64,000 nt of DNA. Source: Planctomycetota bacterium. GTDB lineage: Bacteria; Planctomycetota; UBA8108; UBA1146. Within the stretch, counting starts at the first letter, position 1; each line of letters begins with the position of its first letter. The notes under the pieces are model-generated. The model was given only the letters and a program-made list of their open reading frames with translations. It ran no database searches and had not been told where the DNA came from. Both the position numbers and the translations under genes were made by a program. Shown one piece after another: positions 3,257 to 34,377 of this stretch. Location: positions 11,686 through 75,685 of the forward strand of contig JAYZBV010000072.1 of assembly GCA_036338595.1 (NCBI GenBank), in the 5' to 3' direction.

Positions 3257-4345
3257 CTAGTTTGACGCTTTTCCATCACCATCATCGGCAGATGAGTGGT
3301 AGGAGCGAGACTCCTTCAGTCGTTTGAGCCGCTTCTCTCTCAAACTCTGCGCCCGAGCACGAAGATCGACGACATCATCGTGTTCGTCGACCACCTCGAT
3401 GCCAAGAATCGTCTCGAACAGGTCCTCAGTGGTGATGATGCCGCATGTGCCGCCATGTTCGTCCGCCACCATGGCGATGGGATCCTGGCCGCTGGTGAGA
3501 TCGGCGAGAGCCTGGCGCAGGGTCGCCACCTCGGGTACGAACCGAATTTCCCTGCGAAACTGCACCAGGGGAGTCGTGCCGGGAGCTCCCTCGATGCTGG
3601 CTGACAGCACTTCTCGCAGCAGGACATAACCCGTGACCTCGTCCAGAGACTTGCCGTGAATGGGGATCCTGCTCGGTAGATGGCTTCTCTTGTTCTCGGC
3701 CAGAAGATCACCGATGGTGGCATCTTGCCACAGATCCCACACCACGGTTCGCGGCGTCATCACATCTCCGACGTGGATCTCGTCGAGCCTGAGGATGTTG
3801 CGATAGAGTTCTCGTTCGTGGACGGCAAGAGTCCCATCGGTTCCAGCCATGTCAATCATCGCCTCGACCTCACCCCGTGAGACATGTTCTGTTGATTTGC
3901 TGCCGAAGATCCTCGTCAGAACGACGGTCAATCCCATCGCTGGCTTCATCACAGCGGTCAAGATGTGAAGGCAGACTCCGACGAATCCCGACAGCTTTCG
4001 TGCATGCACCGCGCCTAGCGTCTTCGGAATGATCTCGGCTCCGGTCAGGATCACAAAAGTGAAGAGCGCCGAGAATACTGCGACCCATGCGGGATACTCC
4101 TTGTGAACCAGGTATCCGGCGATCGACGCTCCCATCGTGTTGGAAATGGTGTTGAGGATCAGCACTGCACTGATCGCCTCGTTGAGTCGATGCTTCTTCA
4201 GATCCAGCAGCCAGCGGATGCCGATGCTGCGCTCTCGGCGCTCTTCGAGGCTCGGGATCGAGACAGAGAAGAGGGTCGCCTCGAGCAGGGAACAGATGAA
4301 AGAGACGAAGACGGTCAGCGAGACGACACTGAGGAGAAGGGTCAC
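3257..4345 (-). CDS. CNNM (DUF21) plus CBS-pair membrane protein, HlyC/CorC/TlyC family
   Basis: SFICSLLEATLFS, AISAVLILNT, AEIIPKTLG, DVMTPRT, SRIPI, VADEHGGTCGIITTEDLFETILG-E-VDEHD. GTG start at 4345 preferred over 4462. Confidence 0.9.
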   Translation of the reverse strand: MTLLLSVVSLTVFVSFICSLLEATLFSVSIPSLEERRERSIGIRWLLDLKKHRLNEAISAVLILNTISNTMGASIAGYLVHKEYPAWVAVFSALFTFVILTGAEIIPKTLGAVHARKLSGFVGVCLHILTAVMKPAMGLTVVLTRIFGSKSTEHVSRGEVEAMIDMAGTDGTLAVHERELYRNILRLDEIHVGDVMTPRTVVWDLWQDATIGDLLAENKRSHLPSRIPIHGKSLDEVTGYVLLREVLSASIEGAPGTTPLVQFRREIRFVPEVATLRQALADLTSGQDPIAMVADEHGGTCGIITTEDLFETILGIEVVDEHDDVVDLRARAQSLREKRLKRLKESRSYHSSADDGDGKASN

Positions 4346-5014
4346 GGGCCATCCATCCAGGAGAATTGAGCTTTGCTGGGGGCCATCATACCCGGTCTGC
4401 AGTGGCTCCCAAAACGCTCCTCGCAGCGGGATCGGGGCCCAATCGATGGTTATCGGAACCACAGAGGCTTTGCACTTTACACTTTATAAAGTATGTGTCA
4501 GGCTTCTGCCGGCCCCATGCCCGGGCTCTGTTTGCATGCGATCGCGAGTGCCTCATCGAGTGGCACTCGTTGCTCGATTGTGGATGAGACGGGCGTGAGG
4601 GGATGATCGAGATGGGGGATTCCAGCCAATCCGGGTCATTCCGGAGCATCTGGCATGAACCCTGCACTGTCGATGTGATCGGGCCACTTCACCGGACTGT
4701 CCGGTGTCGCTGGATCAGAGGGGAGAGCAGATGACACCTTCGACCCACGACCAGCGACCCTGCTCAAGTTTAATTTCGAGTCGAATCGGAATCTCGGGGA
4801 CTGCAAATCTGTTCGCTGCGTTGGCACCGCAGCAGGAGTCGAGTTCGTGCAATCCAGTCCCGTCGCATGAAGAACAATTGGTGGGAAATTGGCGGTGCGC
4901 TGCAACTGCCGGTGGCAGTTGCTCATCCCAGGGGTGGAGTCGTTCACAACCAGCCTGTGGGCAAATCCAAGAGGTTGTGGCCCGGCAACCGGGCCAGGTC
5001 GGAAAGAGGGAGTC

Positions 5015-6952
5015 ATGGTGAATCAGGGTACGAGCCAGGGAATCGATGGTCCGCAACAGACCGGTGCTTCCATCGATCTGATCAAATTCTGGGATGAACT
5101 GGGATTTGGTGGGCGCGTCGGGGTGGGGGCGGCTCTCTTTTTCGTGGTCGCATTCATCTTCACTTCATCGATGAAGAACGATTGGATCGACATCCCTGTC
5201 GGCGATGTCGAACGCGACTTTGAACTCACCGAGATCCTCAAGGGCAAGCAGATCGATTTTCGCTTCAATGACGCGGGTGGCCTTCAGGTGCCGAGTATCC
5301 GCGCATCAGAGGTATTTTCACTGCTTCACTCGAATACAGCGGCGGCTGATCAAGCGGATCCATTTGACTGGGTAGGTCAGTCTGGATCGCTGATCGACAC
5401 TTCCAGGCAGCGAGAGCAGCGCTGGGAACGGTCGCAGATCGAGCAACTCGAGGAGGACCTTGCCCGCCTCGAGGGGGTCGACTCGGTGAGCGTGACACCC
5501 AATCGATCGATCGGAGCATCGGTGATTGCTTCGAGCCGCAAGATTACCGGTGTCAGCGTCCAGGTAGATCTCGATGCACAGCTGCGGCCCGCTGGACTCA
5601 GCCAGTCGATGGCGATGTCGATTGCAATGCATGTTTCCGGGGCATACGGGGTTTCGACAGAGAAAGTCATCATCACGGATACCACCGGTCACTACTACGA
5701 TCTCGACAATTCACAGGTGACAGCAGGGGATGTCGTGGAGAAGAAAAAAATCGTCGAACAGTATGTGGTTCGATACCTCTCGGCGATTTTTGATCCTGAG
5801 ATGTTTCGTGTGGTCGTCGATGTGAGTCTGGCCAACCCGGTATTCGAGACGGTCGAGAAGTCAGGTTACATCCCGGGCAATAACCCGGTGGTGCCGGGTA
5901 TCTACGATCTCCAGGAGCAGGTGGCTTCTTACTCACCAATTTCGGCACAGTTTGCGGACTCAGTGGTGACCAGAGCCACAGCTCAGCAGATTCCAGGCCG
6001 TACAGAAGCGGATCCCGCGATCGCAGGTGTTGAAGAGGTTGCGGTCACGGTGATGCTGGATCGTCAAGGCGCCATCGCCAGAGCCAGCGCCAACGGAGGC
6101 TACAGCCGCGGCACTGAAGCAGCCAGCGGGCAACGGAGCGTCGGGCAACTGCTGCGTGAGTTTACCGCCACGATCGTCGATGGCCTCACGTCTCACCTCA
6201 GGGTTCATGTCGGTAGCGATTCAGTGATCCAGGCCAGGGTGCTTCCCGTCAACTTCAAGGGTGTGCTCTCGACTGCTGAGCCGGTCAAGGTTCAGAGTCT
6301 GGCCAACGAAGAATTCGCAGGGTACCCCTTCTCCTTCTACTTCCTGCTAGGAGGGGGATTGCTGGCAGTATTCTGGATATTCCGCCATGGCCCCAGAGAC
6401 TCGACTGTCGAGCCAGCGATAGCAGGGTTCGGTGCGGCGAGATTCGCCCAGGATCGGGTCCGAGAGAGTGTCAATACGATCTTCGAGGAGTGTGAAAGCT
6501 CCATCACCGAAAAAGCGATCGAGCAGATCCGTAGCCTCGATGTTCCCGAGTCAGTCGAGGTTCTTCGGCATGTCATCTCGCACGATGAGGGTGAACTACC
6601 GGGGTGCTCGGTGCTGGCACTACTGGTACTCGATCAATGCCCAGCCCGAGCCGAGATCTTCAATGCCATGAATCCGGAAGAGCTGTCGACACTGTCGGGG
6701 ATGATCTGCGGAGTCGAAGCCATCCATCAAGAAATGATCGCAGATGCACTGGCAGTACTGGACCTCTTCCAGGGTGTACTGTCCGGCTCCAGTCCGACAA
6801 CAGAAGTTCCCTCAGCCATCGATGTGATTCCGACTCAATTCGAAATCCAGCGATCCGTGATCGACGACATCAGATCCAATGATTCGAAACTGGCAGATCT
6901 GATCGAGGGAAATAGCAGCGGCTCCAGTTCAAGGGAGGTTCAATCGCCATGA
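5015..6952 (+). CDS. fliF: Divergent FliF/SctJ-like MS-ring protein with a fused C-terminal partial FliG-like segment
   Basis: Two TM helices (GVGAALFFVVAFIF; FSFYFLLGGGLLAVFWIF); ring-building-motif-like stretches EQLEEDLARLEGVDSVSV, SIAMHVSGAYGVSTEKVIITDTTG, YLSAIFDPEMFRVVVDVSL; first gene before fliH; RBS GAGGGAG before ATG 5015. Confidence 0.75.
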   Translation: MVNQGTSQGIDGPQQTGASIDLIKFWDELGFGGRVGVGAALFFVVAFIFTSSMKNDWIDIPVGDVERDFELTEILKGKQIDFRFNDAGGLQVPSIRASEVFSLLHSNTAAADQADPFDWVGQSGSLIDTSRQREQRWERSQIEQLEEDLARLEGVDSVSVTPNRSIGASVIASSRKITGVSVQVDLDAQLRPAGLSQSMAMSIAMHVSGAYGVSTEKVIITDTTGHYYDLDNSQVTAGDVVEKKKIVEQYVVRYLSAIFDPEMFRVVVDVSLANPVFETVEKSGYIPGNNPVVPGIYDLQEQVASYSPISAQFADSVVTRATAQQIPGRTEADPAIAGVEEVAVTVMLDRQGAIARASANGGYSRGTEAASGQRSVGQLLREFTATIVDGLTSHLRVHVGSDSVIQARVLPVNFKGVLSTAEPVKVQSLANEEFAGYPFSFYFLLGGGLLAVFWIFRHGPRDSTVEPAIAGFGAARFAQDRVRESVNTIFEECESSITEKAIEQIRSLDVPESVEVLRHVISHDEGELPGCSVLALLVLDQCPARAEIFNAMNPEELSTLSGMICGVEAIHQEMIADALAVLDLFQGVLSGSSPTTEVPSAIDVIPTQFEIQRSVIDDIRSNDSKLADLIEGNSSGSSSREVQSP

Positions 6953-7743
6953 ACGACGAAGTATTTTCGCCGACGGATGAGGGCCCAACCGAGATCTTGC
7001 AATCTGAAGTGGAGGCACGTCAGCGCCTGGAAGCACTACAAGTTGCCTACCAGCAACTGATGCAGAAACTGCTCGTCGATGGCCAGAAGTCCATCGCTGC
7101 CATCGAGTTGGCCAGGGAGTCTTCACTGGTAGCGCTCGAGAAGCACAAGAACGAGGCCAGGTCTTCAGGACTTGAACAAGGCCTGGAGGATGGTCGCAAG
7201 CAGGGCTTCGAAGCGGGCCATGCCGAGGGAATCCAGCTGGGACTCGAGGAAGGCCGCCGTGAATTTACACGGAGCGTCGAACAGAGGGCCTGTGAACTGG
7301 TTTCCCAGAACTGTGAAACATTGCCACAAACACTGGCGTCCGCCATCGAGGAGTTCTCCCGATGCTGGAAGGACACGATAGAAGAAACACGGCGTGACAC
7401 CGTGAAGCTTGCCCGTGGAATCGCTCAGAGGGTCCTCCGTCGCGAGATCGAGGACTTGCCATCGGTTGTAGTGGAAAACATCGAGCTTGCCGTGCAGCGG
7501 ATCGGTGATCGATGTCAGATCGTCATCGAGGTCAATCCCGCAGACCTCACAGCTGTAGTCCAGTTTCTTCCGCTTCTTGGACAGAAGTTTGAAGGTGCCG
7601 AGGGCGCAGAGGTGGTCGGGGTAGAGTCGATCTCACGCGGCGGTTGCCGAGTTCGCAGTCGCTCAGCGAGCGTGGATCTGACGATGGAAATGCAGTTGGA
7701 TCTGATCGAATCGGCACTGATCAAGGATTCCCAGGAGAGTTGA
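6949..7743 (+). CDS. fliH: FliH/SctL export ATPase stator/regulator
   Basis: GxxxG repeats (GLEQGLEDGRKQGFEAGHAEGIQLGLEEG), IEVNPADL, ISRGGCRV; ATGA overlap with fliF. Confidence 0.9.
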   Translation: MNDEVFSPTDEGPTEILQSEVEARQRLEALQVAYQQLMQKLLVDGQKSIAAIELARESSLVALEKHKNEARSSGLEQGLEDGRKQGFEAGHAEGIQLGLEEGRREFTRSVEQRACELVSQNCETLPQTLASAIEEFSRCWKDTIEETRRDTVKLARGIAQRVLRREIEDLPSVVVENIELAVQRIGDRCQIVIEVNPADLTAVVQFLPLLGQKFEGAEGAEVVGVESISRGGCRVRSRSASVDLTMEMQLDLIESALIKDSQES

Positions 7744-9065
7744 TGAATTTCATCGATGCGCTCGAGTCACTGAATACGGGACAGATGGTGAGGGTGCGCG
7801 GCACCGTTGCTCGCGTTACAGGAGTGATCGTTGAGGCCCAGGGCCTGTCACTACCTGTGGGAGCTGAGTGCACCATCCGGACTCGAGAAGGTGATCTGGT
7901 GGTGGCAGAGGTGATCGGGTTCTCCGGTGACAGGTGCCACTTGCTTCCCGAGTCGGGCATCTCAGGAATCGCTCCTCAAGATGTGGTGATTCACGATGGA
8001 GAAAAGCCCAGCGTCGAGGTCTCTCACCAGCTGCTCGGTCGCGTCATCGATGCAAGGGGGATCCCCATCGACGGAAAGGGACCCGTCCCCTGTGGCGAGA
8101 AGATGCCCATCCATGCGAAGCCAGTTCCAGCGCTTGAGCGTCAAAGAATTGACCGGGCAGTCCACACGGGTGTGCGCGCCTTTGATTCGATCCTGACTGT
8201 GGGAGTCGGTCAGCGCCTGGGGATCTTCTCGGGAAGTGGTGTCGGCAAATCTACGCTGCTTGGAATGATAGCAAGGAACACCGAACTCCCGATCAGGGTG
8301 ATTGCTCTGGTCGGAGAACGAGGTCGAGAGGTCCGGGAGTTCATCGATAGAGACCTCGGTCCGGAAGGCCTTGCACGAAGTGTTGTCGTGGTAGCGACAG
8401 GAGATGAAGCCGCCGTGATGAGACTGAGGGCAGCCAAGGTTGCCACCTCCATCGCAGAGTGGTTCAGGGATCAGGGCGAAGATGTTCTGTTGCTGGTCGA
8501 CTCCATCACCAGGGTCGCCCTCGCTCAGCGCGAGGTTGGCCTGTGCGCCGGGGAGCCTCCCACAACTCGCGGATACACACCCAGTGTCTTCGGGATGCTC
8601 CCACGGCTCCTCGAGCGAACTGGACCCGGCAAGGTCGGAAGCATCACTGCATTCTATTCCGTTCTTGTCGAAGGGGATGACCTGCACGATCCGATAGGGG
8701 ATGCAGTAAGAGGGATTCTAGATGGGCAGATCTGGTTGAGTAGAGATCTCGCAAATCGGGGCTGGTTCCCGCCTGTAGACCCATGTGCCAGCACCAGCAG
8801 GACGATGAACTCGGTGGTCGATCCTGACCATCTCACCGCTGCTCGCTCACTGGTTGAACTGGTGGCGACTTACCGTGAGATCGAGGACATGGTGCGTATC
8901 GGTGCGTATGTCCGCGGCCAGGATCAAAGATCGGACGCTGCACTCGATGCGATGCAATCGATCGAGGAACTGTTGCGTCAATTGCCTGCAGAGAAGAGTG
9001 AGTTCGAGCTCACCAGGAAGCGCCTGATCGATATCACCAGTAACTCCAGCTGGGAGGTTGCCTGA
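7743..9065 (+). CDS. fliI: FliI/SctN type III export ATPase
   Basis: GQRLGIFSGSGVGKSTLLGMIAR (Walker A), VGERGREVREF, LLLVDSITR (Walker B), GEPPTTRGY, ILDGQIWLSRDLA. Start ATG at 7743. Confidence 0.97.
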   Translation: MNFIDALESLNTGQMVRVRGTVARVTGVIVEAQGLSLPVGAECTIRTREGDLVVAEVIGFSGDRCHLLPESGISGIAPQDVVIHDGEKPSVEVSHQLLGRVIDARGIPIDGKGPVPCGEKMPIHAKPVPALERQRIDRAVHTGVRAFDSILTVGVGQRLGIFSGSGVGKSTLLGMIARNTELPIRVIALVGERGREVREFIDRDLGPEGLARSVVVVATGDEAAVMRLRAAKVATSIAEWFRDQGEDVLLLVDSITRVALAQREVGLCAGEPPTTRGYTPSVFGMLPRLLERTGPGKVGSITAFYSVLVEGDDLHDPIGDAVRGILDGQIWLSRDLANRGWFPPVDPCASTSRTMNSVVDPDHLTAARSLVELVATYREIEDMVRIGAYVRGQDQRSDAALDAMQSIEELLRQLPAEKSEFELTRKRLIDITSNSSWEVA

Positions 9066-9523
9066 TGTCGACCGATGATTTCCGACTCGATGCGTTGCTC
9101 AGATTGCGAAAGAAGGAAGCTCATCTGCAACAGGAAAAACTGACCGCCTGCATCCAGAAACTGGAAGAGCAGCGCCAGGAAATGGGCAGAACTAACGAAA
9201 AGTACCACTCGGTCGTCACAGCCCTCCGCCAGGAGGATCAGGCCGGTGCAACACTCTCGGAACTGATGGTTCATCGCCGGTACCTCGAACGGATGAGAGA
9301 TCTTGCGAAGGAACAGGGCGAACTCGCCGTTTCACTGGCAGCGGATCTGGAACAGGTCCGAGGTCATGTCGTCGAGGCCATCCGTCAATGTCGCGTGGTC
9401 GAAAAATTGAAAGAACGGTTTGAAGAGCGGGAATCAGAGCGTGTCAAACGCAGCGAGCAGCGACTCGTCGATGCAGAGACCAGCGCTCGGATTGCGGCGG
9501 GGATCCAGGCGGAGTCAGCCTGA
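9065..9523 (+). CDS. fliJ: FliJ/SctO export stalk protein
   Basis: 152-aa coiled coil beginning FRLDALLRLRK and containing VEKLKER...EQRLVD; directly follows fliI. Confidence 0.85.
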   Translation: MSTDDFRLDALLRLRKKEAHLQQEKLTACIQKLEEQRQEMGRTNEKYHSVVTALRQEDQAGATLSELMVHRRYLERMRDLAKEQGELAVSLAADLEQVRGHVVEAIRQCRVVEKLKERFEERESERVKRSEQRLVDAETSARIAAGIQAESA

Positions 9524-9579
9524 CAGGGCGTCGAATTCTGCTCAGTAGCGATGGGAATACAGTGGAAAGGAAACCAGCG

Positions 9580-10245
9580 ATGGCAAGTCTCGGGAGTCGA
9601 AGAAGAAATGAACTCCGCTGGGTGAGAACCGTGGTTCTGTTGGCAGTGCTGGTGATCGTTGTCACCACATTCATCGATGCGCAACAGTTTCCGGTCCCGG
9701 AAACAGCAACCAATGCTGAGGTGTCAGGAACTCCGGTGCCAGACGAGCGTTTTGCCAATGGAGGGGTCATTTCTGCCGCCAGTTCGGGCAGTACCTCGGG
9801 ACCATGGAAAACACTTCAGGCACTCGGGGCGATTTTCGTCATCACAGGAGTGGGAATCGGTGGGTACTTCTTGATTCGAAAATTTGCGCCAGGAGCAATC
9901 CCGGGGACAGATGCCCGCATGAAGGTTCTGATGCGGATGCCCATCGGGAATCGCCAGAGCATCATCATTCTTCGGGTAGGTGACAGGGTGCTTGTTGTGG
10001 GCGCTTCCTCCGGCGGCATGAAGTGCCTCAGCGAGATCACCGATCAACATGAAGTTGAAAACCTCAGCTACGGTGTGGAGTTCTCACGGGAACGGAGAAA
10101 AGTAAACGAATTGGTAGATAGCGAGGAGCTCGGCGACTTTGTCGAGGACGATGAGAAAACCAGCGATGTGCAACATGAGATCGAGTGGCTTCGTGACCGC
10201 CTGGATGGTTACGGAGAAAAGGTCGAAGGAAAGGTGCGTACGTGA
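9580..10245 (+). CDS. fliO: FliO/FliZ family export-gate chaperone (start could be 9562)
   Basis: TM helix then MKVLMRMPIGNRQSIIILRVGDRVLVVGASSGGMKCLSEI, a FliO-type beta domain; precedes fliP. Confidence 0.8.
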   Translation: MASLGSRRRNELRWVRTVVLLAVLVIVVTTFIDAQQFPVPETATNAEVSGTPVPDERFANGGVISAASSGSTSGPWKTLQALGAIFVITGVGIGGYFLIRKFAPGAIPGTDARMKVLMRMPIGNRQSIIILRVGDRVLVVGASSGGMKCLSEITDQHEVENLSYGVEFSRERRKVNELVDSEELGDFVEDDEKTSDVQHEIEWLRDRLDGYGEKVEGKVRT

Positions 10246-11087
10246 TCAACGTTCGGCGCTCACTGATTTTGGGAGTCATCGTAGCGTTTGCGATATTGTT
10301 CATCGCAGCGCCTGTAGCGATGGCTAGCGCTGGTGATGGCGAAGCCGTAGGAATCATCGATCGAGTCCTGAGTGGATCTCCGGGGGATGTCGATGTTTCC
10401 ATCAAACTGATCTTGCTGACAACAGTACTCGCGATCGCGCCGGCACTATTGATGCTGACGACCTGTTTTACTCGAATCATCGTGGTACTGGGCTTTGTCA
10501 GGCGAGCCATCGGCACCCAGGATTCGCCACCCAACCAGGTCCTCGTGGGACTCTCCTTCCTGCTCACACTGGCAGTGATGGGGCCTGTCTGGAGCGATAT
10601 TTACACCAATGCGATCCAGCCCTATGCAGACCAGACTCCGATGCCGACCACCGGAGAGGTGCCCACCGGGGAAGAAGCGTACGCATACGCAGATTCAAAG
10701 ATGCGTGAGTTCATGTACCACGCCATCGACGAGGGTGACCTGCTATTGATGGCCAGGGTAGGTGCAGCGAAGACGGTCGAGGAACAATACGAAGAAGACG
10801 GGATCATCAGCGCTGAATTTGTCGATTCATTACCAACCACGGTGATCATCCCGGCGTTTGTCCTCAGCGAGCTGAGGAGAGCCTTCGAGATGGGATTCAT
10901 GATCTACATCCCGTTCGTCGTCATCGATCTCGTGGTCTCCGCATTACTGGTCTCGATGGGGATGCTGATGCTGCCTCCAGTGGTAGTTTCGCTCCCCTTC
11001 AAGGTGCTGGTCTTCGTGCTGGTGGACGGTTGGGGACTGGTAGTCGAGCAACTGTTGTTCTCCTCGATGGTGACGGTGACCGGATGA
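10242..11087 (+). CDS. fliP: FliP/SctR export gate protein
   Basis: TTCFTRIIVVLGFVRRAIG, PPNQVLVGL, IPAFVLSELRRAFEMGF, MGMLMLPP, LPFKVLVFVLVDGW; signal-peptide-like N-terminus, a flagellar-type trait. Confidence 0.97.
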   Translation: MINVRRSLILGVIVAFAILFIAAPVAMASAGDGEAVGIIDRVLSGSPGDVDVSIKLILLTTVLAIAPALLMLTTCFTRIIVVLGFVRRAIGTQDSPPNQVLVGLSFLLTLAVMGPVWSDIYTNAIQPYADQTPMPTTGEVPTGEEAYAYADSKMREFMYHAIDEGDLLLMARVGAAKTVEEQYEEDGIISAEFVDSLPTTVIIPAFVLSELRRAFEMGFMIYIPFVVIDLVVSALLVSMGMLMLPPVVVSLPFKVLVFVLVDGWGLVVEQLLFSSMVTVTG

Positions 11088-11362
11088 CACGATTAGATGT
11101 AGCACTGGATTTCCTCCAGCAGGCGTTGCTCGTTGCACTGCAACTGTCGGTGCCAATATTGTTAGTGATGATGATTGTCGGAATTGCCGTGAGTCTCATC
11201 CAGGCGATGACACATCTACAGGATCAAACTCTCACCTTTGTTCCGAAGATCCTTGCCGTCGCCGTCGCTCTGCTTCTGCTGATGCCACTGCTTCTGGGAT
11301 GGGCGACCGAGTTCACCAGGGAAATGATCCAGGCCTCCGCCGTCGCGCTGGGTGGGGGGTGA
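11084..11362 (+). CDS. fliQ: FliQ/SctS export gate protein
   Basis: VGIAVSLIQAMTHLQDQTLTFVPKI; ATGA overlap with fliP. Confidence 0.95.
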   Translation: MTRLDVALDFLQQALLVALQLSVPILLVMMIVGIAVSLIQAMTHLQDQTLTFVPKILAVAVALLLLMPLLLGWATEFTREMIQASAVALGGG

Positions 11363-11368
11363 TCCAGG

Positions 11369-12202
11369 ATGGCTGAGCTGTTCGAATACTCCACATCCTC
11401 ATGGGCCGGTTGGTTTCTCGTCTTCACGAGGATCTCGGGAGCGATGATGGTGCTTCCCATCTTTTCTTCTCGCACGATTCCGGCGCGGATCAAGGCTGCG
11501 ATTGCGGCGCTGATCGCGCTCTGCGTGGCACCACTGGCCATCGCAGATCCATCAGGAACCGGCACGAGGCAGATGGGAGAGTTGATGGCGACGCCGCTGG
11601 CTGGCGCTGTCTCCATCTGTGGTGAACTGGCTCTTGGCTGGGTCCTGGGCGCCACTGCAGCGGTGTTGATGTGGGGAGCACACCTCGGGGGGCAGTTGAT
11701 CGGACAGGATTCCGGGCTGGCATTTGGTCAGGTGGTCGATCCCACGACCGGGCAAGCGACGGCTCCGACGGCGAACTTGATGATGATTTTCGCAGGACTT
11801 GCTTTTCTGGCACTGGAAGGTCATCGGCTGGTGATCCTGGCGCTGTGCGGCTCCTTCGATGCCGTTCCTCCCGGATCCATCGGCAATATCCTGATACACG
11901 GGGTTCCCCTCACCACGGCTGCTCAGATCACGAGCGAACTCGGCTCGCAAACCTGGATGCTCGGACTGCAAATCGCTTTTCCGGCCAGTATTGCGCTGCT
12001 GGTGACGACCGTGGGTCTCGGTTTGATGGCCCGGATGATTCCCGAGATGAATGTCTTTGCGGTCGGCTTTGCAGTTCGTACAGGGGTTGGAATGCTAGCC
12101 CTCTTCATGACACTTCCCTTCATCGCGGATCTATTTGGTGCTGTCGTCGCGACGGGCCTCCAGGGATCGCAGATGATCCTCAGTGGACTCGGGGGGAACT
12201 GA
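11369..12202 (+). CDS. fliR: FliR/SctT export gate protein
   Basis: FTRISGAMMVLPIFS, GELALG, GQLIGQDSGL, DP, GHRLVI, GLMARMIPEMNVF. Confidence 0.95.
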   Translation: MAELFEYSTSSWAGWFLVFTRISGAMMVLPIFSSRTIPARIKAAIAALIALCVAPLAIADPSGTGTRQMGELMATPLAGAVSICGELALGWVLGATAAVLMWGAHLGGQLIGQDSGLAFGQVVDPTTGQATAPTANLMMIFAGLAFLALEGHRLVILALCGSFDAVPPGSIGNILIHGVPLTTAAQITSELGSQTWMLGLQIAFPASIALLVTTVGLGLMARMIPEMNVFAVGFAVRTGVGMLALFMTLPFIADLFGAVVATGLQGSQMILSGLGGN

Positions 12203-12215
12203 AGTGATCTTCCAG

Positions 12216-13043
12216 ATGACTGACCACGGTGAGAAAACCGAGGCCCCAACGCGCAAGCGATTGGAATCTGCACGACTGGAGGGTCGGGTAGCACTGAGCA
12301 GTGATCTGGTCGGATCCTTCGTGCTGACGTCTGGTTTCGGATTCTTGCTTTTCTTCTCCGGGAGCATCTTTGCAGCGATCTTCTCGGGGACCCGAGCATC
12401 TCTGGGATCCATCGGGAGCATCCGACTCAACGAGCAGGCAAGCCTACAGTTGCTGACAGATGCGGTGGAACATTCCCTCGTCATCCTGTTGCCGATACTG
12501 CTGACGATATTTGCCGTGGCGGCGGTGGTGACATGGTTGCAGGTAGGCCTACGCATCCGGACAGGGGAGGTGTTGCCGGATCTGACCAGAGTCGATCCGA
12601 TTCGAGCACTGATGAACATCCTCGGCCTGGGTGGACTGCGGCGAGTGGGAATGGGAGTGCTGAAGTTGATTGCCGTCGGAATCGTGCTTGTTCCGGGCAT
12701 CTGGGGCTTGATGGGCGACTCCGAAGTGATCCGCAGTGCAGCGGTGGTGGCAGGCGGTGGATCACTGGCTGCGATCGGCACGAAAGTGGTCGAGTTGATC
12801 CTGCAGGCATGTGGCGCCCTGCTGATCGTTTCTGCAGTGGATTGGGCCTTCAGGCGTTGGGCCTACCAGAGATCCCTGATGATGAGCCGGAGAGAAGTGG
12901 AGGACGAGAAGAGAGAACTGACAGGCGATCCTCATCTGAGGCGAAGACGCAAGCAGCGTCACCGGCAAATCCTGGAGAAACGGGGTCCGGAGTTCACCGA
13001 CGAGACGTCACTCCACAGCGGATCGAGAGGCGACACCCGATGA
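12216..13043 (+). CDS. flhB: FlhB/SctU homolog with TM domain and linker only; no NPTH autocleavage or switch domain
   Basis: EKTEAPTRKRLESARLEG, four TM segments, LMMSRREVEDEKRELTGDPHLRRRRKQ, then a short tail and stop; 275 aa; ATGA overlap with flhA. Confidence 0.9.
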   Translation: MTDHGEKTEAPTRKRLESARLEGRVALSSDLVGSFVLTSGFGFLLFFSGSIFAAIFSGTRASLGSIGSIRLNEQASLQLLTDAVEHSLVILLPILLTIFAVAAVVTWLQVGLRIRTGEVLPDLTRVDPIRALMNILGLGGLRRVGMGVLKLIAVGIVLVPGIWGLMGDSEVIRSAAVVAGGGSLAAIGTKVVELILQACGALLIVSAVDWAFRRWAYQRSLMMSRREVEDEKRELTGDPHLRRRRKQRHRQILEKRGPEFTDETSLHSGSRGDTR

Positions 13044-15205
13044 ACGAGCACCAGATGCACACACTGACGCCAGTCTCCGGCTGGAAAGATACCATCCGCA
13101 GGAACCGGGATCTCGCCGTCGTGCTGGCGCTTGCGGGGATCCTCATCGCCATCCTTGTGCCCCTACCCGGTCGATTGATGGACGGGCTGCTCGGCGCGAA
13201 CATCGGCTTATCAGTGCTGATCCTGCTCACGGTGGTTTATCTCCGCAAGCCGCTGGAGTTTGCTTCCTTTCCCTCATTACTGCTGCTGGCAACGCTGTAC
13301 CGTCTCGCCCTCAACATTGCCACGACTCGATTGGTTCTCAGTCGTGCAGGAGACGAAGGGGTAACGGCTGCTGGAGATGTAGTGCACTTCTTCGGTGAGT
13401 TTGTTTCGGGTTCCAATTTGATCGTCGGTTTCATCATCTTCTCGATTCTCGTGGTGATCCAATTTGTCGTCGTGACCAAAGGTGCAACGCGTATTGCAGA
13501 GGTGGCTGCTCGATTCACGCTCGACAGGATGCCCGGCGCTCAGATGGCCATCGATGCCGATCTCAATGCAGGGAACATCTCGGGCAAGGAGGCGAGCACA
13601 GCAAGGGAGCAACTCGCCGAACAGGCTGATTTCTACGGGGCGATGGATGGAGCCAGCAAGTTTGTTCGCGGAGATGCCATCGCCGGGATCATCATCACGA
13701 TCATCAATATCGTTGGTGGATTCACCATCGGAGTCCTTCAGTACGGGATGACCTTTGCTGAAGCGGGACGGGTGTTCACGACGTTGACCATCGGAGATGG
13801 CCTGGTCACTCAGATTCCCGCACTCTTTATCAGCGTCGCTGCCGGGTTGATGGTCACCAGAGCATCGACGAGGGGCCAGATCGGGGACGCCGTCGTCGGA
13901 CAGTTGTTCGGCAACCCGAGGGCGCTGGCGATCACGGCCCTGGTTCTTGTGGCTCTCGCCTTCACCGGTTTGCCTCCTGTTGTTCTTGGTGTCCTTGCCG
14001 TATCGCTGGCGACTGTGGCCTACTTGTCGCGTAAACCGAGGCGTGCGCCGGTCAGTACAGGGGCAGCAGTGGCGATGCCCTCACTCCCCGGGGGCGTTGA
14101 GACGGCAGAAGACTCCGGACAGGGGACCACGACCAGCGCCCGCCGGATCGAGTTCTCGGGCCAGCAACCGATTCGCATCGAACTTGGCTACAGTCTTCAA
14201 AGTCTTCTCGAGCCCGAATCGTCAGGAGTGGCTCTCAGTGTCCGGGTTCAGAAACTGAGAGAAGATCTTCAGAAAGAACTTGGATTCTGGATTCCCCCTG
14301 TGCATGCCAAGGTGCAGATCCGGGGGATTCCGAGGCAAGAGTTCAGCATCCAGCTCAGAGAGATTCCCTGTTCGCGTGGTGTGCTGAGAGCGAGGCAGGC
14401 ACTCATCGTTTCAGATCACCGTCGCTCGATCGATGGAATATCAGGAGACGCTGCTGAACTGGAGATTCTTGAGGCTCCTGCAAGGTGGATATCGCTCGAT
14501 GAGGGCGAGATGCGAAAGTCACTCGGGTACCGAGTACTCACTGCGCAAGATGCGCTGATTCTTCACCTTCGCAGCGTGATCATGGAGCATATTCAGGAGC
14601 TTCTGACGCAGAAGGAAACTCGCAGGATCCTTGACCGAGTCGGCGAGGAGTGCCGAACTCTGGTGGACGAAGTGGTCCCTGAACTGCTGCGTGTCGGAGA
14701 GATACAGAAAATTCTCCAGTCGTTACTCGCAGAGGGAGTTTCGATCCGGGATATGGAGAAGATCCTCGAAACGCTGGGCGAGGAGGTCCAGCAGCGACCT
14801 GAATCGCGCAAGGATCTCACTGCATTGGCGGAGACGGTGCGAGCATCTCTCGGACGCAGCATCTGTGCTCAATATCTGGATCCGCAGGGCAAGTTGCATG
14901 TCGTCACCCTGGATCCACAGATAGAGAGCGTTCTGCTGGAAGATCTGGCACCTGCCGAGCACGCCGAGAATGCCCCGTGCCTGTCACCACAGCAGCATGA
15001 GTCCGTGATGGAGGCGCTCGTCATGGCGGTGGCCCAGCTGGTTGAGAGTGACCATCCTGCTGTCATCCTCACCTCGCGCCAGCTGCGAATTCCGATCAAG
15101 AAGCTGCTGGAGAAGGAAGTGCCCACGGTGGCGGTCCTCTCCTACAATGAAGTCGGCCACGGGACCACCGTGGAATCTGGGGGGATGGCGAGAATCGTTG
15201 CCTGA
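13040..15205 (+). CDS. flhA: FlhA/SctV major export apparatus protein
   Basis: FPSLLLLATLYRLALNIATTR, GATRIAEVAARFTLD, FYGAMDGASKFVRGDAIAG, TIGDGLVTQIP, LLAEGVSIRD, VLSYNEV; 721 aa from ATG 13040. Confidence 0.97.
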   Translation: MNEHQMHTLTPVSGWKDTIRRNRDLAVVLALAGILIAILVPLPGRLMDGLLGANIGLSVLILLTVVYLRKPLEFASFPSLLLLATLYRLALNIATTRLVLSRAGDEGVTAAGDVVHFFGEFVSGSNLIVGFIIFSILVVIQFVVVTKGATRIAEVAARFTLDRMPGAQMAIDADLNAGNISGKEASTAREQLAEQADFYGAMDGASKFVRGDAIAGIIITIINIVGGFTIGVLQYGMTFAEAGRVFTTLTIGDGLVTQIPALFISVAAGLMVTRASTRGQIGDAVVGQLFGNPRALAITALVLVALAFTGLPPVVLGVLAVSLATVAYLSRKPRRAPVSTGAAVAMPSLPGGVETAEDSGQGTTTSARRIEFSGQQPIRIELGYSLQSLLEPESSGVALSVRVQKLREDLQKELGFWIPPVHAKVQIRGIPRQEFSIQLREIPCSRGVLRARQALIVSDHRRSIDGISGDAAELEILEAPARWISLDEGEMRKSLGYRVLTAQDALILHLRSVIMEHIQELLTQKETRRILDRVGEECRTLVDEVVPELLRVGEIQKILQSLLAEGVSIRDMEKILETLGEEVQQRPESRKDLTALAETVRASLGRSICAQYLDPQGKLHVVTLDPQIESVLLEDLAPAEHAENAPCLSPQQHESVMEALVMAVAQLVESDHPAVILTSRQLRIPIKKLLEKEVPTVAVLSYNEVGHGTTVESGGMARIVA

Positions 15206-15248
15206 CTTACCGAGTCAGTTGGCGAGTTCCTCGCGGGGAAAGGGGAGC

Positions 15249-16688
15249 GTGCTCTTGAATGAGCCAACAGTACCCGGTGACGCGGGGCACACCCGCGTCG
15301 TAGCACCGGATTACGCATCTGCAGTTCGCATTCTTCAGGATCGATTCGGAAGTGATTGGACGGTGGTCCATTCACGGAAGGTTCGAAGGCCTGGATTTCT
15401 GGGATTGTTCGGCGTTTCTGATGTGGTCGTGATCGTCCGCACCGAGGAATCGATGCTGTTCCAGCCTCAGGCAAATCCCGTCGTCTCCTCCAGTGGGAAA
15501 CTGGCGCCACTGGCAATAGATGCGGGTCAGTTTGATGTCCCGGTATCGATCCCTGACCTCGTGCCGGTCATGGCAGGCAATTTCGAGCCGAGCAATGAAG
15601 CGGGGGATCTTGTGTATCGCCTCGAAGATGCTCGCAGTCGGATCGCCGATGAGTTGAAGGCATATTCCAAATCGATGTCAGGACAATCGTCCACTACCGC
15701 ATGGGAATCAGCGCAGCAGCGAACTGATGTGGAATCACTCCCGATCGAAGCTGAGCAACCTGGGGTTGCGACGCAGCTGAACACCGAATGCGATGATGTC
15801 CTGGATGGGAATGCGGATCCGATCGAGCCAGGGGGTGCAGAAAATCTGATCGACATGCACATCTCACAGGGTGAGCACCAGGATGTGGAGCCAGCGTTTC
15901 TCGGAGCAATATTGACTCATTGTGATGTGGCTGGATTTCCTCCTGCGGCAGTGAAGATGATAGTGGAGCAGGTCTGCGCCGATCCGATTGACGAAAGCCA
16001 CGGCCCCGGGGATTACCAGCAGATCGCCAGGGAGAGGATAATTCGCTGCATCCAGGCGAGAATCCCTGACACGGTGCAGATCGCAGCGGGTTCGGTCGGA
16101 CTGCCGAGAGTGGTGGCTCTGGTCGGTCCCACAGGTGTCGGAAAGACCACGACGCTGGCGAAACTGGCGGCACACTTTCATCTGGTCGAGAAGAGGAGAG
16201 TCGGTCTCGTGACTCTCGATTGCTACAGAATCGGAGCCATCGAGCAGCTACGCCGATTCGCCGAGATACTGGGCCTGCCTCTCAAAACAGTTTCCGAGGC
16301 AGCAGGCGCAGCCGAGGCGATCGAGGGCTTCTCCGATTGCGATGTGATTCTGGTGGATACAGCTGGCCGTAGTCAACGCGACCAGGAGCGCCTCACCGAG
16401 GTGCGGGATTCTCTCGCAAACATCGGGGACGTCGAAGTACATCTCTGCCTGTCACTCGCTGCATCGCCGGAGGCGATCGTCGCTGCTGCGGAATCGTTCC
16501 GGATGGTCAAGTACGACCGTGTCATCTTCACCAAGAAGGATGAGTCGTATCGAAAGGGGTTCCTCTGGGATCTGTTCGGCGTGACTCCGGTTCCAGTCTC
16601 CTATGTCACCTGTGGGCAAGAGGTACCCGAGGATATTCAGCCGGCAACCAGGGAACTGATCTGTGAAATGATGATCCAGGGAAGATGA
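15249..16688 (+). CDS. flhF: FlhF SRP-family GTPase
   Basis: VVHSRKVRRPGFLGLFG N-domain; GPTGVGKTTTLAKLA, DCYRIGAIEQL, DTAGRS, TKKDE, GQEVPEDI. Start approximate (GTG 15249 after AGGGGAG). Confidence 0.92.
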   Translation: MLLNEPTVPGDAGHTRVVAPDYASAVRILQDRFGSDWTVVHSRKVRRPGFLGLFGVSDVVVIVRTEESMLFQPQANPVVSSSGKLAPLAIDAGQFDVPVSIPDLVPVMAGNFEPSNEAGDLVYRLEDARSRIADELKAYSKSMSGQSSTTAWESAQQRTDVESLPIEAEQPGVATQLNTECDDVLDGNADPIEPGGAENLIDMHISQGEHQDVEPAFLGAILTHCDVAGFPPAAVKMIVEQVCADPIDESHGPGDYQQIARERIIRCIQARIPDTVQIAAGSVGLPRVVALVGPTGVGKTTTLAKLAAHFHLVEKRRVGLVTLDCYRIGAIEQLRRFAEILGLPLKTVSEAAGAAEAIEGFSDCDVILVDTAGRSQRDQERLTEVRDSLANIGDVEVHLCLSLAASPEAIVAAAESFRMVKYDRVIFTKKDESYRKGFLWDLFGVTPVPVSYVTCGQEVPEDIQPATRELICEMMIQGR

Positions 16689-17569
16689 GAGACCAGGCCT
16701 GGCGACTTCGAAAGATGGTAGAAGAAAAGGTGTTCCCTGTCAGGGGGAGGGCCAGGGTGCTGGCAGTGACCAGTGGCAAGGGTGGTGTCGGAAAGACCAA
16801 CATCTCGGTCGGGCTTGCCATCGCCGCGGCAGCCTCTGGAATCCGCACCGTGCTGCTCGATGGCGATCTTGGTCTGGCCAATATCGATGTACTTCTCGAT
16901 CTCCATCCCAGAAAGCACCTGGGTCATCTGATCGATGGAGAGGCAACTCTCGAAGATGTGCTGATCGACTCACCCGGAGGAATCCAGGTACTACCTGGTG
17001 CCAGTGGTCTGACCAGGGTTGCAGATCTTGGAAATGTTCAGAAACAGCGACTGCTCGAAGCGGTGGCGAGACTGGTGGAAGAATTCGACCTGGTCCTGAT
17101 CGATACGGGTGCTGGGATTTCTCGCGCAGTGCTCGATCTTTGCATATGTGCGGGAGAGGTGTTGGTGGTGACGACACCGGAACCAACAGCTGTCGTCGAT
17201 GCCTATGCGATGCTGAAGGTGTTTTCGGTCGAGGAGTCTACCCCAAAGCAATGGCTGGTGGTCAATCAGGTCCTTTCTCGGGGTGAAGCTCAACAGGTTT
17301 CCAGTCGCATGATCAGTCTTGCTCAGCAATTTCTGGGTGTTGAGGTGAACGGTTGTGGTTCGGTATTGCTCGATCCGCGTGTCAGGGCATCGGTTCGCAG
17401 GAGACAGCATTTCTCTCTCGCCTATCCTTCCTGTCCTGCTGCCAAGGGGGTCAAGGAAGTGGCTCATATTCTCGGTCTGGCGGGGCGAGCAGGGAGCCGT
17501 GGTTTCATGAATCGTCTAAAAGAGATGTGGATCGGGGATCTGAGCAGGCCCCGGGAGCGTTCTCTTTGA
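16685..17569 (+). CDS. flhG: FlhG/FleN MinD-like ATPase
   Basis: N-terminal DQAxxLR motif (MRDQAWRLR), SGKGGVGKT, DGDLGLANID, DTGAG, TPEPT. Confidence 0.93.
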   Translation: MRDQAWRLRKMVEEKVFPVRGRARVLAVTSGKGGVGKTNISVGLAIAAAASGIRTVLLDGDLGLANIDVLLDLHPRKHLGHLIDGEATLEDVLIDSPGGIQVLPGASGLTRVADLGNVQKQRLLEAVARLVEEFDLVLIDTGAGISRAVLDLCICAGEVLVVTTPEPTAVVDAYAMLKVFSVEESTPKQWLVVNQVLSRGEAQQVSSRMISLAQQFLGVEVNGCGSVLLDPRVRASVRRRQHFSLAYPSCPAAKGVKEVAHILGLAGRAGSRGFMNRLKEMWIGDLSRPRERSL

Positions 17570-17742
17570 GGGCCAGTTGCTCGAGTTGTGCGGATTCTCG
17601 AGAGCGTGGCACGGAAGATGCCGTTGACTGCGGGGACCTGGCACGCTGGCGGATGATCGTCGGATTCAGACGTGATCCCCTGGAGACGACACGAAGGGTC
17701 CTGTTAGGCTAACGGCAAGAAACTCAGGAAGAGGAGACTCAA

Positions 17743-18588
17743 TTGGCGCAGATCGAGTCGGAAGAGACACGGAAAACTATTCCTGCAAACGATTCCCTGG
17801 TCGGAAAGACCCGGATGCAGGATGACCCGGAACTTGAGCAGGTATGGATCGAGTTCAAGGAATCCCAGAGTAATGAACTCAAGAACAATCTCCTGGAGAG
17901 GTATCTGCACATCGTTCGATACACTGCAGACCGTCTTCACATGAAGTTACCTCAACAGGTTGATGTAGAAGATCTGTACAGTGCGGGTTTGTTCGGCCTG
18001 ATGGATGCGATCGACAACTACGATCTGACTCGCGGAGTTAAATTCGAGTCCTACTGCTCGACCCGGGTTCGCGGCTCGATTCTGGACTCACTTCGAAAGA
18101 TGGACTGGGTTCCTCGCCTGGTTCGCTCAACGGCCAACCGGATCGATGCAGCCTGGAAACAGTTCCAGAACGAGACGGGAAGAGAACCCACCGACTTCGA
18201 GATGGCTGAGCAACTGGGAGTGACCGACGAGGAATTCGAATCGATGCAGCGAGAAGCATCTGCGGCTTCCATCGTCTCGATCTCGGAACAGATTTCTGAC
18301 GAAGGGGAGTCCAGGTCACTGAGAAAAATCGATATCCTCAATGACAAGAAGGCCAAGTCTCCCGACGAAGATTCTCTCAGAACTGCGATCAAAGAGTTCA
18401 TCTATGATCAACTGGATTATCGTGAGCAGGCGATCATCGAGGGCTACTACTTCCAGGGGAAGACGATGAAGTGCATCGGATTGAAACTCCATCTGTCAGA
18501 ATCAAGAGTTTGTCAGCTTCACTCGCGGATCATGAGTCGATTGCGCCAGACCTGCGACAAGCACCGACTCGACTTCATGCAGGATTGA
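17743..18588 (+). CDS. fliA: Sigma-28 family RNA polymerase sigma factor (FliA/WhiG)
   Basis: DLYSAGLFGLMDAID, GVKFESYCSTRVRGSILDSLRKMDWVPR, GREPTD, MKCIG-LHLSESRVCQLH. Confidence 0.95.
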   Translation: MAQIESEETRKTIPANDSLVGKTRMQDDPELEQVWIEFKESQSNELKNNLLERYLHIVRYTADRLHMKLPQQVDVEDLYSAGLFGLMDAIDNYDLTRGVKFESYCSTRVRGSILDSLRKMDWVPRLVRSTANRIDAAWKQFQNETGREPTDFEMAEQLGVTDEEFESMQREASAASIVSISEQISDEGESRSLRKIDILNDKKAKSPDEDSLRTAIKEFIYDQLDYREQAIIEGYYFQGKTMKCIGLKLHLSESRVCQLHSRIMSRLRQTCDKHRLDFMQD

Positions 18589-20618: not shown

Positions 20619-21671
20619 TTACCCCAGTATTCGCACGCGGGTGGAACCCTCAGCAGGTCTCACCTCACCGATGATGCAGTGTCTCTGGACACTCTCTCGT
20701 TCCATCGTCTCTGCAAGAGCCCCGACGTTTTCAGGCGAGATGGCCATCAGTAGGCCTCCAGAAGTTTCTGAATCGAGAGCCAGATTGAGCAGGTGCGACG
20801 GTACATCACCGGACAATTGCAGATGATCAGCGAGGTGGGCGCGGTTTCGTTTCGAGCCACCGGAGACCAGTTCCCTGCGAGCAAGATCTTCGGCTCCCGG
20901 CAGGATCGGCAGATCTGAAGCGACGATCTCCAGGGTCACGCCGCTGGCAGCGGCCATCTCGGCGGCGTGTCCACAAAGACCGAAGCCCGTGACATCGGTG
21001 ACGGAATGTGCATCGAGTGCCTTCGCAACCTCTGCTGCAGCAGCGTTGAGGGTAGACATCGAGATGGTGGCAGCGCTCAGCACATCTGCATCCACCTGGC
21101 CCTTGTTGAGAGCAGTGCTCACGGTTCCTGTCCCCAGGGCTTTGGTGAGCACCAGGATGTCTCCGGCGCGGGCACCTCCGTTGGTGAGGATCTTCGCAGG
21201 ATCGATGGTGCCGGTCACGGCGAGTCCATATTTCACCTCGGAGTCGCGGACACTATGTCCGCCCAGCAACGCGCAATTGGCCTCCACCATCTTCTCTGCT
21301 CCCCCGGCGAGGATCTCACCGAGCAGGGACATCGGAAGTTCCTGAGGGAATCCCACGATGTTGAGCGCACTCAGCGGAGATCCACCCATGGCGTAGATGT
21401 CCGACAGGCTGTTGGCTGCTGCGATACGGCCAAAATCCCCGGGATCGTCGACGATGGGCGGAAAGAAATCGACGGTCTGGACGATGCAGTGATCGGTCCC
21501 GGGAATCTGGATGACACCCGCGTCATCCAGGGTGTCTGGACCGTGGAGAACCTCGGAGCGTGTCGGTACCTGCAGGCTGGAGAGGACCTCGACCAGGTCC
21601 CCCGGAGAGAGCTTTGACGCTCAGCCAGCACAGGATGCGTATTGAGTGAGTCGAATCGGTGCTTCAGACAC
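20619..21671 (-). CDS. selD: Selenide, water dikinase (selenophosphate synthetase), a selenoprotein with UGA at codon 17
   Basis: GGAAGGAG RBS and GTG start at 21671 give MSEAPIRLTQYASCAG-TGA-ASKLSPGDL...DDAGV...QTVDFFPP...ANSLSDIYAMGG, in frame with ORF 20619..21389 (GGHS, TDVTGFGL, DSETSGGLL). Confidence 0.95.
21581..21603 (-). promoter_or_regulatory. Candidate bacterial SECIS element of selD
   Basis: On the minus strand, 17 nt after the UGA: GGGGGACCT-GGTCG-AGGTCCTCT, a 9-bp stem (two G-U pairs) with a G-initiated loop starting 26 nt after UGA. Confidence 0.6.
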
Positions 21672-21727
21672 TGGTGCTGCTCCTTCCCGGTTGAGGGAGG
21701 ATCACACCACATGAGGATGCCGTCAAG

Positions 21728-32082: not shown

Positions 32083-32321
32083 TTTCGTTCCTCCGGGAAA
32101 GATCGTAAATCAGGATCAGAAAAGGAGAAAGGGGCCCCAGGGTGGGCACACTCCGACCAAATCTGACATGTTTGGAGAAAATCCGGCTTTTGAGGGGGAA
32201 TTTCAGTTCCGGTGGCGTCATCCTGGTGACTACTGAGGTGGATAGACCCCCTGGTGCTCCCTGGCAGGATTTTGTGTCCTGGAGCGGGGAATCGGGTCGC
32301 CCCCCCGGAGGAAGGAAAATC

Positions 32322-34061: not shown

Positions 34062-34377
34062 CCCCGGTCCCCATCGGCAATTCCTGCCGATGTCAGATCG
34101 CCCCGATTCCTCGCTGTGGAAGCAATTCACCAGGGCGCAATTATCGTGCCCGGAATCGGACGAAATCGCTCGGTACAGAGGGGCCAAAAGCGCAAAAATA
34201 GGGGATCTTTACTAGCCGGCGAGACACACCGGATCTGCTCTTCCAGACAGACATGACGAATCAGCCGGATGGGCTGAGAGGCTGCGATCTTTCACAGATG
34301 GCGCATCTCTGGTGCATCCGGACAGGCGTCGGTGGAAACAGAAGAGGCGGTGGGAGCCGCCCCGAAAAGGAATCAAC

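Follow-up and report, generated by a model that had tools for sequence, protein, structure and literature searches.

The flhB locus and its gene cluster

The window, a stretch of 64,000 nucleotides from a bacterium of the Planctomycetota, carries on its forward strand 13 flagellar genes in the order fliF-fliH-fliI-fliJ-fliO-fliP-fliQ-fliR-flhB-flhA-flhF-flhG-fliA (5012-18588). Two further genes of this genome (G000), flgM and flgN, lie outside the window.

5012..6952, +, fliF (MS ring) with a putative fused FliG N-terminal remnant at ~6590-6770; start may be 5015; PF01514
6949..7743, +, fliH; PF02108
7743..9065, +, fliI, export ATPase that preserves its Walker A lysine, catalytic glutamate and Walker B aspartate as well as the arginine finger
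9065..9523, +, fliJ; PF02050 at E=1.6e-5, under the curated cut-off, and position after fliI
9562..10245, +, fliO; PF04347
10242..11087, +, fliP; PF00813, conserved motifs
11084..11362, +, fliQ; PF01313
11369..12202, +, fliR; PF01311
12216..13043, +, flhB, membrane domain and linker helix, without C-domain and NPTH; PF01312 positions 1-243/335
13040..15205, +, flhA, complete, with its charged membrane residues retained; PF00771 positions 1-654/657
15252..16688, +, flhF, SRP-type GTPase with GTPase motifs intact; start approximate; PF00448
16685..17569, +, flhG, MinD-type ATPase; PF10609, PF01656
17743..18588, +, fliA, sigma-28; start may be 17812; sigma regions 2, 3 and 4
G000 C55:14413-14736, -, flgM, outside the window; 107-aa ORF
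G000 C34:25765-26292, -, flgN, outside the window; FlgN profile, E=2.5e-21

The gene at 12216-13043 (+) lies between fliR and flhA, the usual position of FlhB/SctU, and its 275-aa product, with an N-terminal membrane domain and a linker helix, is a truncated orthologue of FlhB rather than a complete switch protein. Retained are the EKTEAPT motif at the N-terminus, the membrane region and, ahead of a basic helix, the MSRREVEDEKRELTGDP linker. Homology stops after the linker helix, at residue ~256-259, a point corresponding to residue 258 of a 383-aa FlhB in the PDB; the ~16-19 residues beyond this point are unrelated. The self-cleaving NPTH motif and the C-terminal switch domain were absent from the PF01312 match, from the class profile search and from the six frames: within 12801-13500, no frame contained NP[TS][HE] or matched the class-specific FlhB-C profile. 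The genome gave a single PF01312 match, so that a second full-length flhB is absent, and the class profile search revealed no stand-alone FlhB-C. This confirms the sequence-only reading of the locus, according to which FlhB ends before NPTH.

The host genome is a draft (88% complete, 7% contamination), and an assembly or frameshift error could in principle have produced a short FlhB. The data run against such an error: FlhB-C is found in no frame, the same N-only PF01312 match occurs in all 8 other genomes of the genus (one has a contig end inside the gene), with the same end point in independent genomes and a full-length orthologue in none, and N-only FlhB is also encoded in a class genome assembled as one contig (G254). 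The truncation is confirmed as real, and we give an artefact practically no chance.

The TGA stop of flhB overlaps the ATG of flhA as ATGA (13040-13043). The sequence-only reading had taken this tidy overlap as a sign of an evolved deletion. The deletion itself is supported by its conservation, by dN/dS values of 0.14-0.35 and by its repeated origins, but the argument from the overlap is weak: full-length flagellated relatives (G009, G010, G013 and G016) have it too, so it is ancestral and points to a probable internal deletion sparing the last codons, not to a newly evolved coupling.

An export apparatus without a flagellum

All the core export components (FliP, FliQ, FliR, FlhA, FliO and the MS-ring protein FliF) are present, as is the ATPase complex FliH/FliI/FliJ with its catalytic residues. 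The roles of the FliI catalytic residues, of the FlhA charged membrane residues and of the FlhF/FlhG motif residues are presumed to be those usual for these proteins. In this cluster fliO directly follows fliJ, at the place where flagellated kin have fliK, flgD, flgE, motAB, fliL and fliN. The flagellated family member G009, whose FliA is 55% identical to that of the window, shows the same gene order plus fliG, fliK, flgD, flgE, motAB, fliL and fliN, with flgB, flgC and fliE upstream.

Searches of the genome with class-specific profiles gave nothing credible for rod, hook, ring, junction, filament or cap, nor for FliK, FliE, FliG or FliN; the absence of fliK that had been read from the window thus extends to the genome. 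No stator was identified in this genome, in which MotB profile matches lie at other places. The locus of the axial genes, in the middle of a contig, contains flgN alone. The FliN profile has no match, and the only trace of a C-ring found is at the end of FliF, where the best PDB match of the tail profile was FliG residues 3-61 (E=0.001). FliG_N was matched, weakly, by 9 of 17 FliF tails, and the best 12 Foldseek matches of the tail were FliG or C-ring chains, none of them at E<=0.001; with HHalign, the tail matched an alignment of four FliG sequences only weakly (probability 15%). Tail profile, FliG_N matches and Foldseek are each weak and all three agree, suggesting that FliF ends in a FliG stub.

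With neither axial genes nor FliK, full C-ring or stator found, the system differs from a bacterial flagellum. An injectisome does not fit either, as the cluster is devoid of secretin, inner-ring and needle genes, its genes nest among the flagellar genes of the same class, and the secretin that we examined is encoded elsewhere in the genome. The system appears to be neither flagellum nor injectisome and, by analogy, would work like the flagellar FlgM checkpoint.

Two loci of relatives touch on these losses. In two flagellated genomes, a block (L229:4926-11069 in G009, L230:4943-11103 in G027) encodes a TPR protein, a second FlgN-like gene and a protein of 840-950 aa, and is possibly an undescribed flagellar accessory locus; in the genome under study, the flanking merR and radical SAM genes stand side by side. 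The second FlgN-like gene and the large protein were considered as a chaperone-cargo pair and rejected as cargo of the gate, because the whole block is missing here. In G033 (f4), flgN, fliW, csrA and flaG are kept without flagellin (L236:1700-3595), an intermediate stage of loss.

Distribution of the truncated FlhB

FlhB-family proteins are encoded in all 41 relatives, rod or hook genes are present in 12 and flagellin in 11; the remaining 29 genomes have flhB but neither rod/hook genes nor flagellin. In these non-flagellated genomes FlhB is N-only in 23 cases (one cut by a contig end) and full-length in 6, of which 3 carry an NPSE motif and 3 have lost the asparagine. The full-length FlhB of these 6 genomes means that the system can serve its role without the truncation. 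In a class-wide sample (55 genomes, completeness >=75%), FlhB was found in every genome: 16 have the full-length form, 36 the N-only form (in 2 of them at contig ends) and 3 a small C-half gene only. FliK occurred in 14 of the 55 genomes and in none of the 36 with N-only FlhB, in which a separate C-half gene was also not found.

In the phylum sample, 131 of 221 genomes had FlhB-family proteins and 90 had none. Among the matches listed (51 weaker ones lie beyond), N-only FlhB as the sole copy occurred outside the class only at contig ends. UBA8108, the class of the lineage studied here, is placed near OM190 in a preprint (10.1101/817700).

The survey turned up other FlhB-like genes. Two genomes of another class encode, outside their flagellar clusters, a second stand-alone FlhB-like protein of 235-241 aa corresponding to the membrane part (L226:8529-9236 (-) in G166 and L227:8921-9646 (-) in G135), in addition to a full-length flhB. 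A 100% complete genome of another class (G043) has a diverged fliN-O-P-Q-R-flhB block with an FlhB without NPTH (L231:4556-8868 (-)), no flhA adjoining within the stretch examined, and FlgM in the genome; this may be a parallel reduction. The closest named record (L146), with an FlhA 90% identical to that of the window, is labelled Bacillota, while the other close ones are Planctomycetota, so the label is probably wrong.

Repeated losses of the flagellum and of the switch domain

A tree of concatenated FliP, FliQ, FliR, FlhA, FlhG and FliA, from which flhB was deliberately left out, was built for 39 genomes (G026 and G030 were excluded, as no cluster was captured). Its main branches are those of a tree of 30 RpoB sequences, an indication of vertical descent. 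The non-flagellated genomes occupy three positions in the tree, corresponding to three separate losses of the flagellum. AU tests, run on 24 of the 39 genomes under LG+G4 with a quick search and with long branches for the reduced systems, rejected a single clade of non-flagellated genomes (p=1e-4). They likewise rejected a single clade of truncated FlhB for the whole set (p=2e-7), for the family alone (p=3e-66) and for one genus (p=9e-8). At least 4 changes are needed to account for the truncated state, or five events when only losses are allowed. Because kin are not independent, these events, and not the genomes, are the count that matters.

The switch domain decays in steps, with FlhB-C scores of 160-180 bits in flagellated genomes, then 129-141, 82, 43, 16 and none. 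The tails form a parallel series, from NPTH/NPTE in flagellated genomes to NPSE, to full-length forms without the asparagine, and then to truncated proteins, whose ends lie 23-65 residues past the beginning of the GDP motif, versus 123-136 in full-length forms. As read from these tails, the intermediates lose NPTH first, before the truncation of FlhB.

The gate is under purifying selection

In 12 pairs of non-flagellated genomes, dN/dS was at most 0.44 for every one of the 13 cluster genes, and truncated flhB ranged from 0.14 to 0.35 (11 pairs): all 13 genes are under purifying selection. Across 27-28 non-flagellated genomes, the charged membrane residues of FlhA are either invariant or show a D-to-E change. 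FliI retains its Walker A lysine and its catalytic glutamate in 24 of 25, and the motifs of FlhF and FlhG are intact in every non-flagellated genome from which these genes were captured. The exception for FliI is G036, where the protein is dead (L044:5340-6827, Walker A lysine and catalytic glutamate lost). FliI was not found in three f6 genomes (G034, G038 and G040), where the matches were weak (29-34%) and are probably ATP synthase subunits.

The cluster could instead be a slowly decaying leftover of a flagellum, the truncation of flhB being an early step of gene loss. Consistent with this, the retained set varies by lineage (fliE and fliG are kept in f4, fliG in f7, and fliH/I are missing from f6 clusters), and the ratio of changes in export proteins to changes in RpoB is 2.9-4.3 in non-flagellated f1 genomes, versus 2.2-2.8 in most flagellated pairs, although one flagellated pair reaches 4.8. 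But the frames are open and full-length in all captured clusters, FlhA is 52-66% identical between several genomes, dN/dS is far below 1, and the family is present in 55/55 genomes of the class, whereas FlhB is missing from 90/221 genomes of the phylum. Decay is largely refuted by this evidence of selection and we regard it as very improbable.

Metatranscriptome contigs from three runs contain 6-7% of the sampled words. They cover scattered pieces from fliO to fliA, including flhB 12232-12382 in one run, and part of flgM in two runs; as neighbouring genes are covered alike and there is no silent control, these contigs show neither transcription nor its level.

FlgM and FlgN are retained

The flagellated members of the class have FlgM. 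At the flgM site of the genome studied here, we found a 107-aa ORF with no Pfam match, which HHalign related to the FlgM of the class with a probability of 95% (E=2e-8). Homologues of this ORF occur in 17 of the 41 genomes and Pfam FlgM matches in 19, giving flgM in 36 of 41 genomes and in 24 of the 29 non-flagellated ones (7 by Pfam, 17 via the ORF), with all three non-flagellated branches represented. Neither the Pfam nor the ORF searches found flgM in G002, G014, G023, G033 and G040. It was present in 5/5 further rod-less genomes. In the phylum sample, all 55 genomes with a FlgM match at E<=1e-5, a threshold set after the listing had been inspected, have FlhB; weak matches (E from 2e-5 to 1e-3) occur in 14 of the 90 genomes without FlhB. 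The dN/dS values of flgM were mixed (0.03-1.06 over 8 pairs). Together with fliA, the genome studied here has both the sigma factor and the anti-sigma gene of the FlgM/sigma-28 checkpoint.

FlgN matches were found in 28 of 41 genomes at E values up to 0.01, with dN/dS of 0.06-0.37, and flgN is kept in non-flagellated genomes of f1, f4 and f7. In f6, FlgN was not found in 3/3 genomes, 2 of which have FlgM. Given that FlgM, FlgN and sigma-28 promoters are kept while the other substrates are gone, FlgM appears, on gene content, to be the only known flagellar substrate left in the system.

A predicted sigma-28 regulon

Upstream of 26 of the 36 flgM genes lies a TCAAG or TAAAG box followed, after 16 bases, by CCGAT. 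This motif, learned from the flgM upstream regions, resembles the sigma-28 consensus, and we presume on this basis that it is read by FliA. The enteric sigma-28 consensus had no match upstream of the flagellin genes. With a matrix trained outside the clade, the 1525 upstream regions of this genome contained 10 sites of at least 14 bits, versus a shuffle mean of 2.9 and maximum of 7; at 12 bits the upstream excess was slight (15 versus 9.2), and over all genome positions the matrix showed no enrichment. The pattern gave 30 matches versus 4 in the control in five members of the family, and 23 versus 0 in five other non-flagellated genomes. Of the 30 family sites, 17 precede genes that have a site in this genome too, 9 lie inside genes and 4 are unassigned.

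The predicted targets found in common are flgM, a small gene that leads a diguanylate cyclase, the genes for a PilZ membrane protein, a secretin and a TPR lipoprotein, the prkA operon, and the gene for a small membrane protein. Sites upstream of the secretin and PilZ genes are also present in flagellated kin (4-19 bits), so that part of the regulon looks ancestral. In f6/f7, ftsK is preceded by a sigma-28-type site in 3/3 genomes searched (G034, G036 and G039; L328, L330, L343, L336 and L331). In the genome studied here, ftsK, murC, fliA and fliF have no good site, which limits the link with division to the f6/f7 branch. If sigma-28 drives ftsK there, it would offer a handle on the control of division in planctomycetes, which are not known to have FtsZ. 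Single sigma-28-type sites were also seen in f6/f7 genomes before a Mur ligase and an L,D-transpeptidase.

A gate that may export FlgM

How FlhB switches secretion is a long-standing question, and the closest known counterpart of the genotype described here comes from Salmonella. In a strain devoid of rod and hook, of flk and of further late substrates, selection for FlgM-Bla export to the periplasm gave mutants of which the type III secretion-dependent ones, 10 of 10, were altered in the FlhB C-domain, one of them by a stop at FlhB residue 258, according to the available text of Chevance et al. 2026 (PMC13344023). Deleting the C-domain fixed the late mode, made FliK dispensable and blocked early cargo (PMC13344023), and the study argues that this domain is a brake that must be removed (PMC13344023). 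The homology of FlhB in our cluster ends at the position (~residue 258) of the stop codon selected in rod-less Salmonella (PMC13344023). From the closeness of this natural genotype to the Salmonella strain, we infer that the cluster encodes a gate fixed in late mode, which would export FlgM to set sigma-28 activity, and we put the probability of this reading at about 0.6. The earlier suggestion of a single-mode exporter, which named neither the mode nor the cargo, is a fair one.

A plausible course of events can be proposed. In the flagellated ancestor, sigma-28 would also have driven non-flagellar genes; once the flagellum was lost, those genes would still have needed timing, and FliA, FlgM and the machine that removes FlgM would have been retained. 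In the absence of hook and FliK, the gate would be kept in early mode by an intact C-domain, and loss of this domain would be tolerated or favoured. FlgM would leave via FliPQR into the periplasm, its expected destination because there is no rod or outer ring, and the freed sigma-28 would transcribe the genes for the secretin, the TPR lipoprotein and the PilZ membrane protein, the diguanylate cyclase and prkA operons, and flgM itself. Instead of hook completion, the signal would be the assembly, placement (FlhF/FlhG) or energising of the gate. Extended to the whole class, this would make the system a signalling pump with FlgM as sole cargo and a switch domain deleted repeatedly so as to fix the late mode, in which gate assembly, placed by FlhF/FlhG, acts as a sigma-28 cell-cycle clock for pilus and c-di-GMP genes or for ftsK and cell-wall genes, depending on the branch; this extension is tentative, and we rate it at somewhat under an even chance.

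Some observations sit uneasily with FlgM export. FlgM is diverged and without a Pfam match in this family, FliA and FlgM can apparently persist without an exporter, as the cases of Legionella and Helicobacter suggest, and FliE was not found, while one branch has no FliI and one genome (G036) a dead one. The missing ATPase, and the failure of class profiles to find FliN as well as FliE, would suit a gate that secretes no FlgM and is a membrane or polar mark placed by FlhF/FlhG, whose motifs are intact wherever captured in non-flagellated genomes. FlgM would then be bound or inactivated at FlhA in the cytoplasm, much as H. pylori FlgM is reported to be inactivated rather than exported (PMC5655016), or the pole would be marked for pili or division, and the C-domain would have been lost since nothing docks. 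Yet such a mark would not obviously need the whole FliP/Q/R/O pore, the charged residues of FlhA and an intact ATPase complex, all under purifying selection, and Salmonella can export even when the ATPase is missing (PMC4230889), which makes a pure landmark unlikely in our judgement.

FlgN, kept without its usual cargo, could mean that the gate has another substrate. The gate might export a different protein to the periplasm, perhaps with FlgN, or form the base of a nanotube, FlgM and FliA being passengers. The survival of flgN, alone at the axial site and with low dN/dS in f1, f4 and f7, is in line with this, as are the reports that export genes retained in Lysobacter secrete or affect other proteins (PMC7688988, PMC7277350) and that the same gene set may be a nanotube platform (PMC6456723). 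However, class profiles revealed no flagellin-, hook- or junction-like protein, the f6 genomes gave no FlgN match (3/3) but FlgM in 2/3, and the retention of FlgM is left unexplained. FlgN also activates FlhA in Salmonella (PMC7955116), which would explain its retention without a new cargo. We therefore hold a different cargo to be improbable as the sole explanation, and it can coexist with FlgM export.

Relation to known systems

The Salmonella strains resemble the system described here in having no rod/hook and no other late substrate and in not needing FliK (Chevance et al. 2026, PMC13344023). Their FlhB ends near residue 258 or is devoid of residues 270-383, with FlgM as cargo and the periplasm as destination (PMC13344023), features that we liken to the present system from its genes. 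In contrast to the laboratory strains, the genotype here is a natural one that had several origins and is subject to selection. Also missing here are FliE, FliN and the greater part of FliG, whereas the Salmonella mutants kept fliE and needed the loss of flk and extra basal bodies (PMC13344023). With the flagellar FlgM/sigma-28 checkpoint (PMC13344023, PMC4526659), the system shares FliA, FlgM, a sigma-28-type promoter before flgM and the export gate; it differs in having neither a hook to finish nor a filament, and in its predicted targets (secretin, PilZ, diguanylate cyclase and prkA, with ftsK in another branch).

Sigma-28 and its anti-sigma factor were also retained after loss of the flagellum in Legionella oakridgensis, which keeps FliA and FlgM, the latter seemingly degraded (PMC5655016). 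The export apparatus was lost there, whereas here it is kept and trimmed. Lysobacter enzymogenes, non-flagellated and with a link to type IV pili, has export genes (PMC7688988, PMC7277350) but, unlike these genomes, keeps some rod, hook and ring genes. The available text of these papers gives no loss of NPTH (the term occurs 0 times in PMC7688988), and that of PMC7277350 does not mention FlgM/FliA. The nanotube CORE (Bhattacharya et al. 2019, PMC6456723) likewise comprises FliO, FliP, FliQ, FliR and FlhB together with FlhA without flagellum or injectisome. This set is present here, as known from genes alone, with FlhB truncated; unlike the CORE, the system keeps the ATPase, FlhF/G, FliA, FlgM and FlgN and has an FlhB without C-domain, and planctomycetes go unmentioned in the available text of PMC6456723. 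Structurally, the membrane part of FlhB belongs to the gate (PMC7064499), in agreement with its retention.

Partial flagellar gene sets have been surveyed (10.1101/2024.12.05.626484, PMC12248157, PMC13277936), with planctomycetes mentioned in none of the available texts. The full-text literature searched, in which subscription papers are thinly covered, contained neither a naturally occurring FlhB without C-domain nor any account of this system. Orphan export cores were already known (PMC6456723, and Lysobacter). Evolution seems to have repeated the Salmonella selection several times: with hook and ruler gone and FlgM kept, the C-domain degenerates and is truncated near a common position. The natural truncations would give independent support to the brake model, together with a graded allelic series, and suggest a use of orphan export cores beyond nanotubes and effector secretion, the control of genes by export.

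Other genes in the window

Two genes flank the cluster in several family members: one for a coiled-coil protein with a membrane anchor, which matched no family above cut-off (2454-3065, -), and one for a CNNM/CBS protein (3257-4462, -). Three adjacent genes at 28100-31564 (+), which by eye we take to be bshC, bshB1 and bshA, presumably serve bacillithiol synthesis, and genes at 20619-23137 (-) resemble, again by eye, selenophosphate synthetase and selenocysteine synthase. Two similar small proteins are encoded at 32142-33002 (+) and 34312-35142 (+); homologues of the latter have a von Willebrand A domain, and in G010 and G011 a sigma-28-type site lies upstream.
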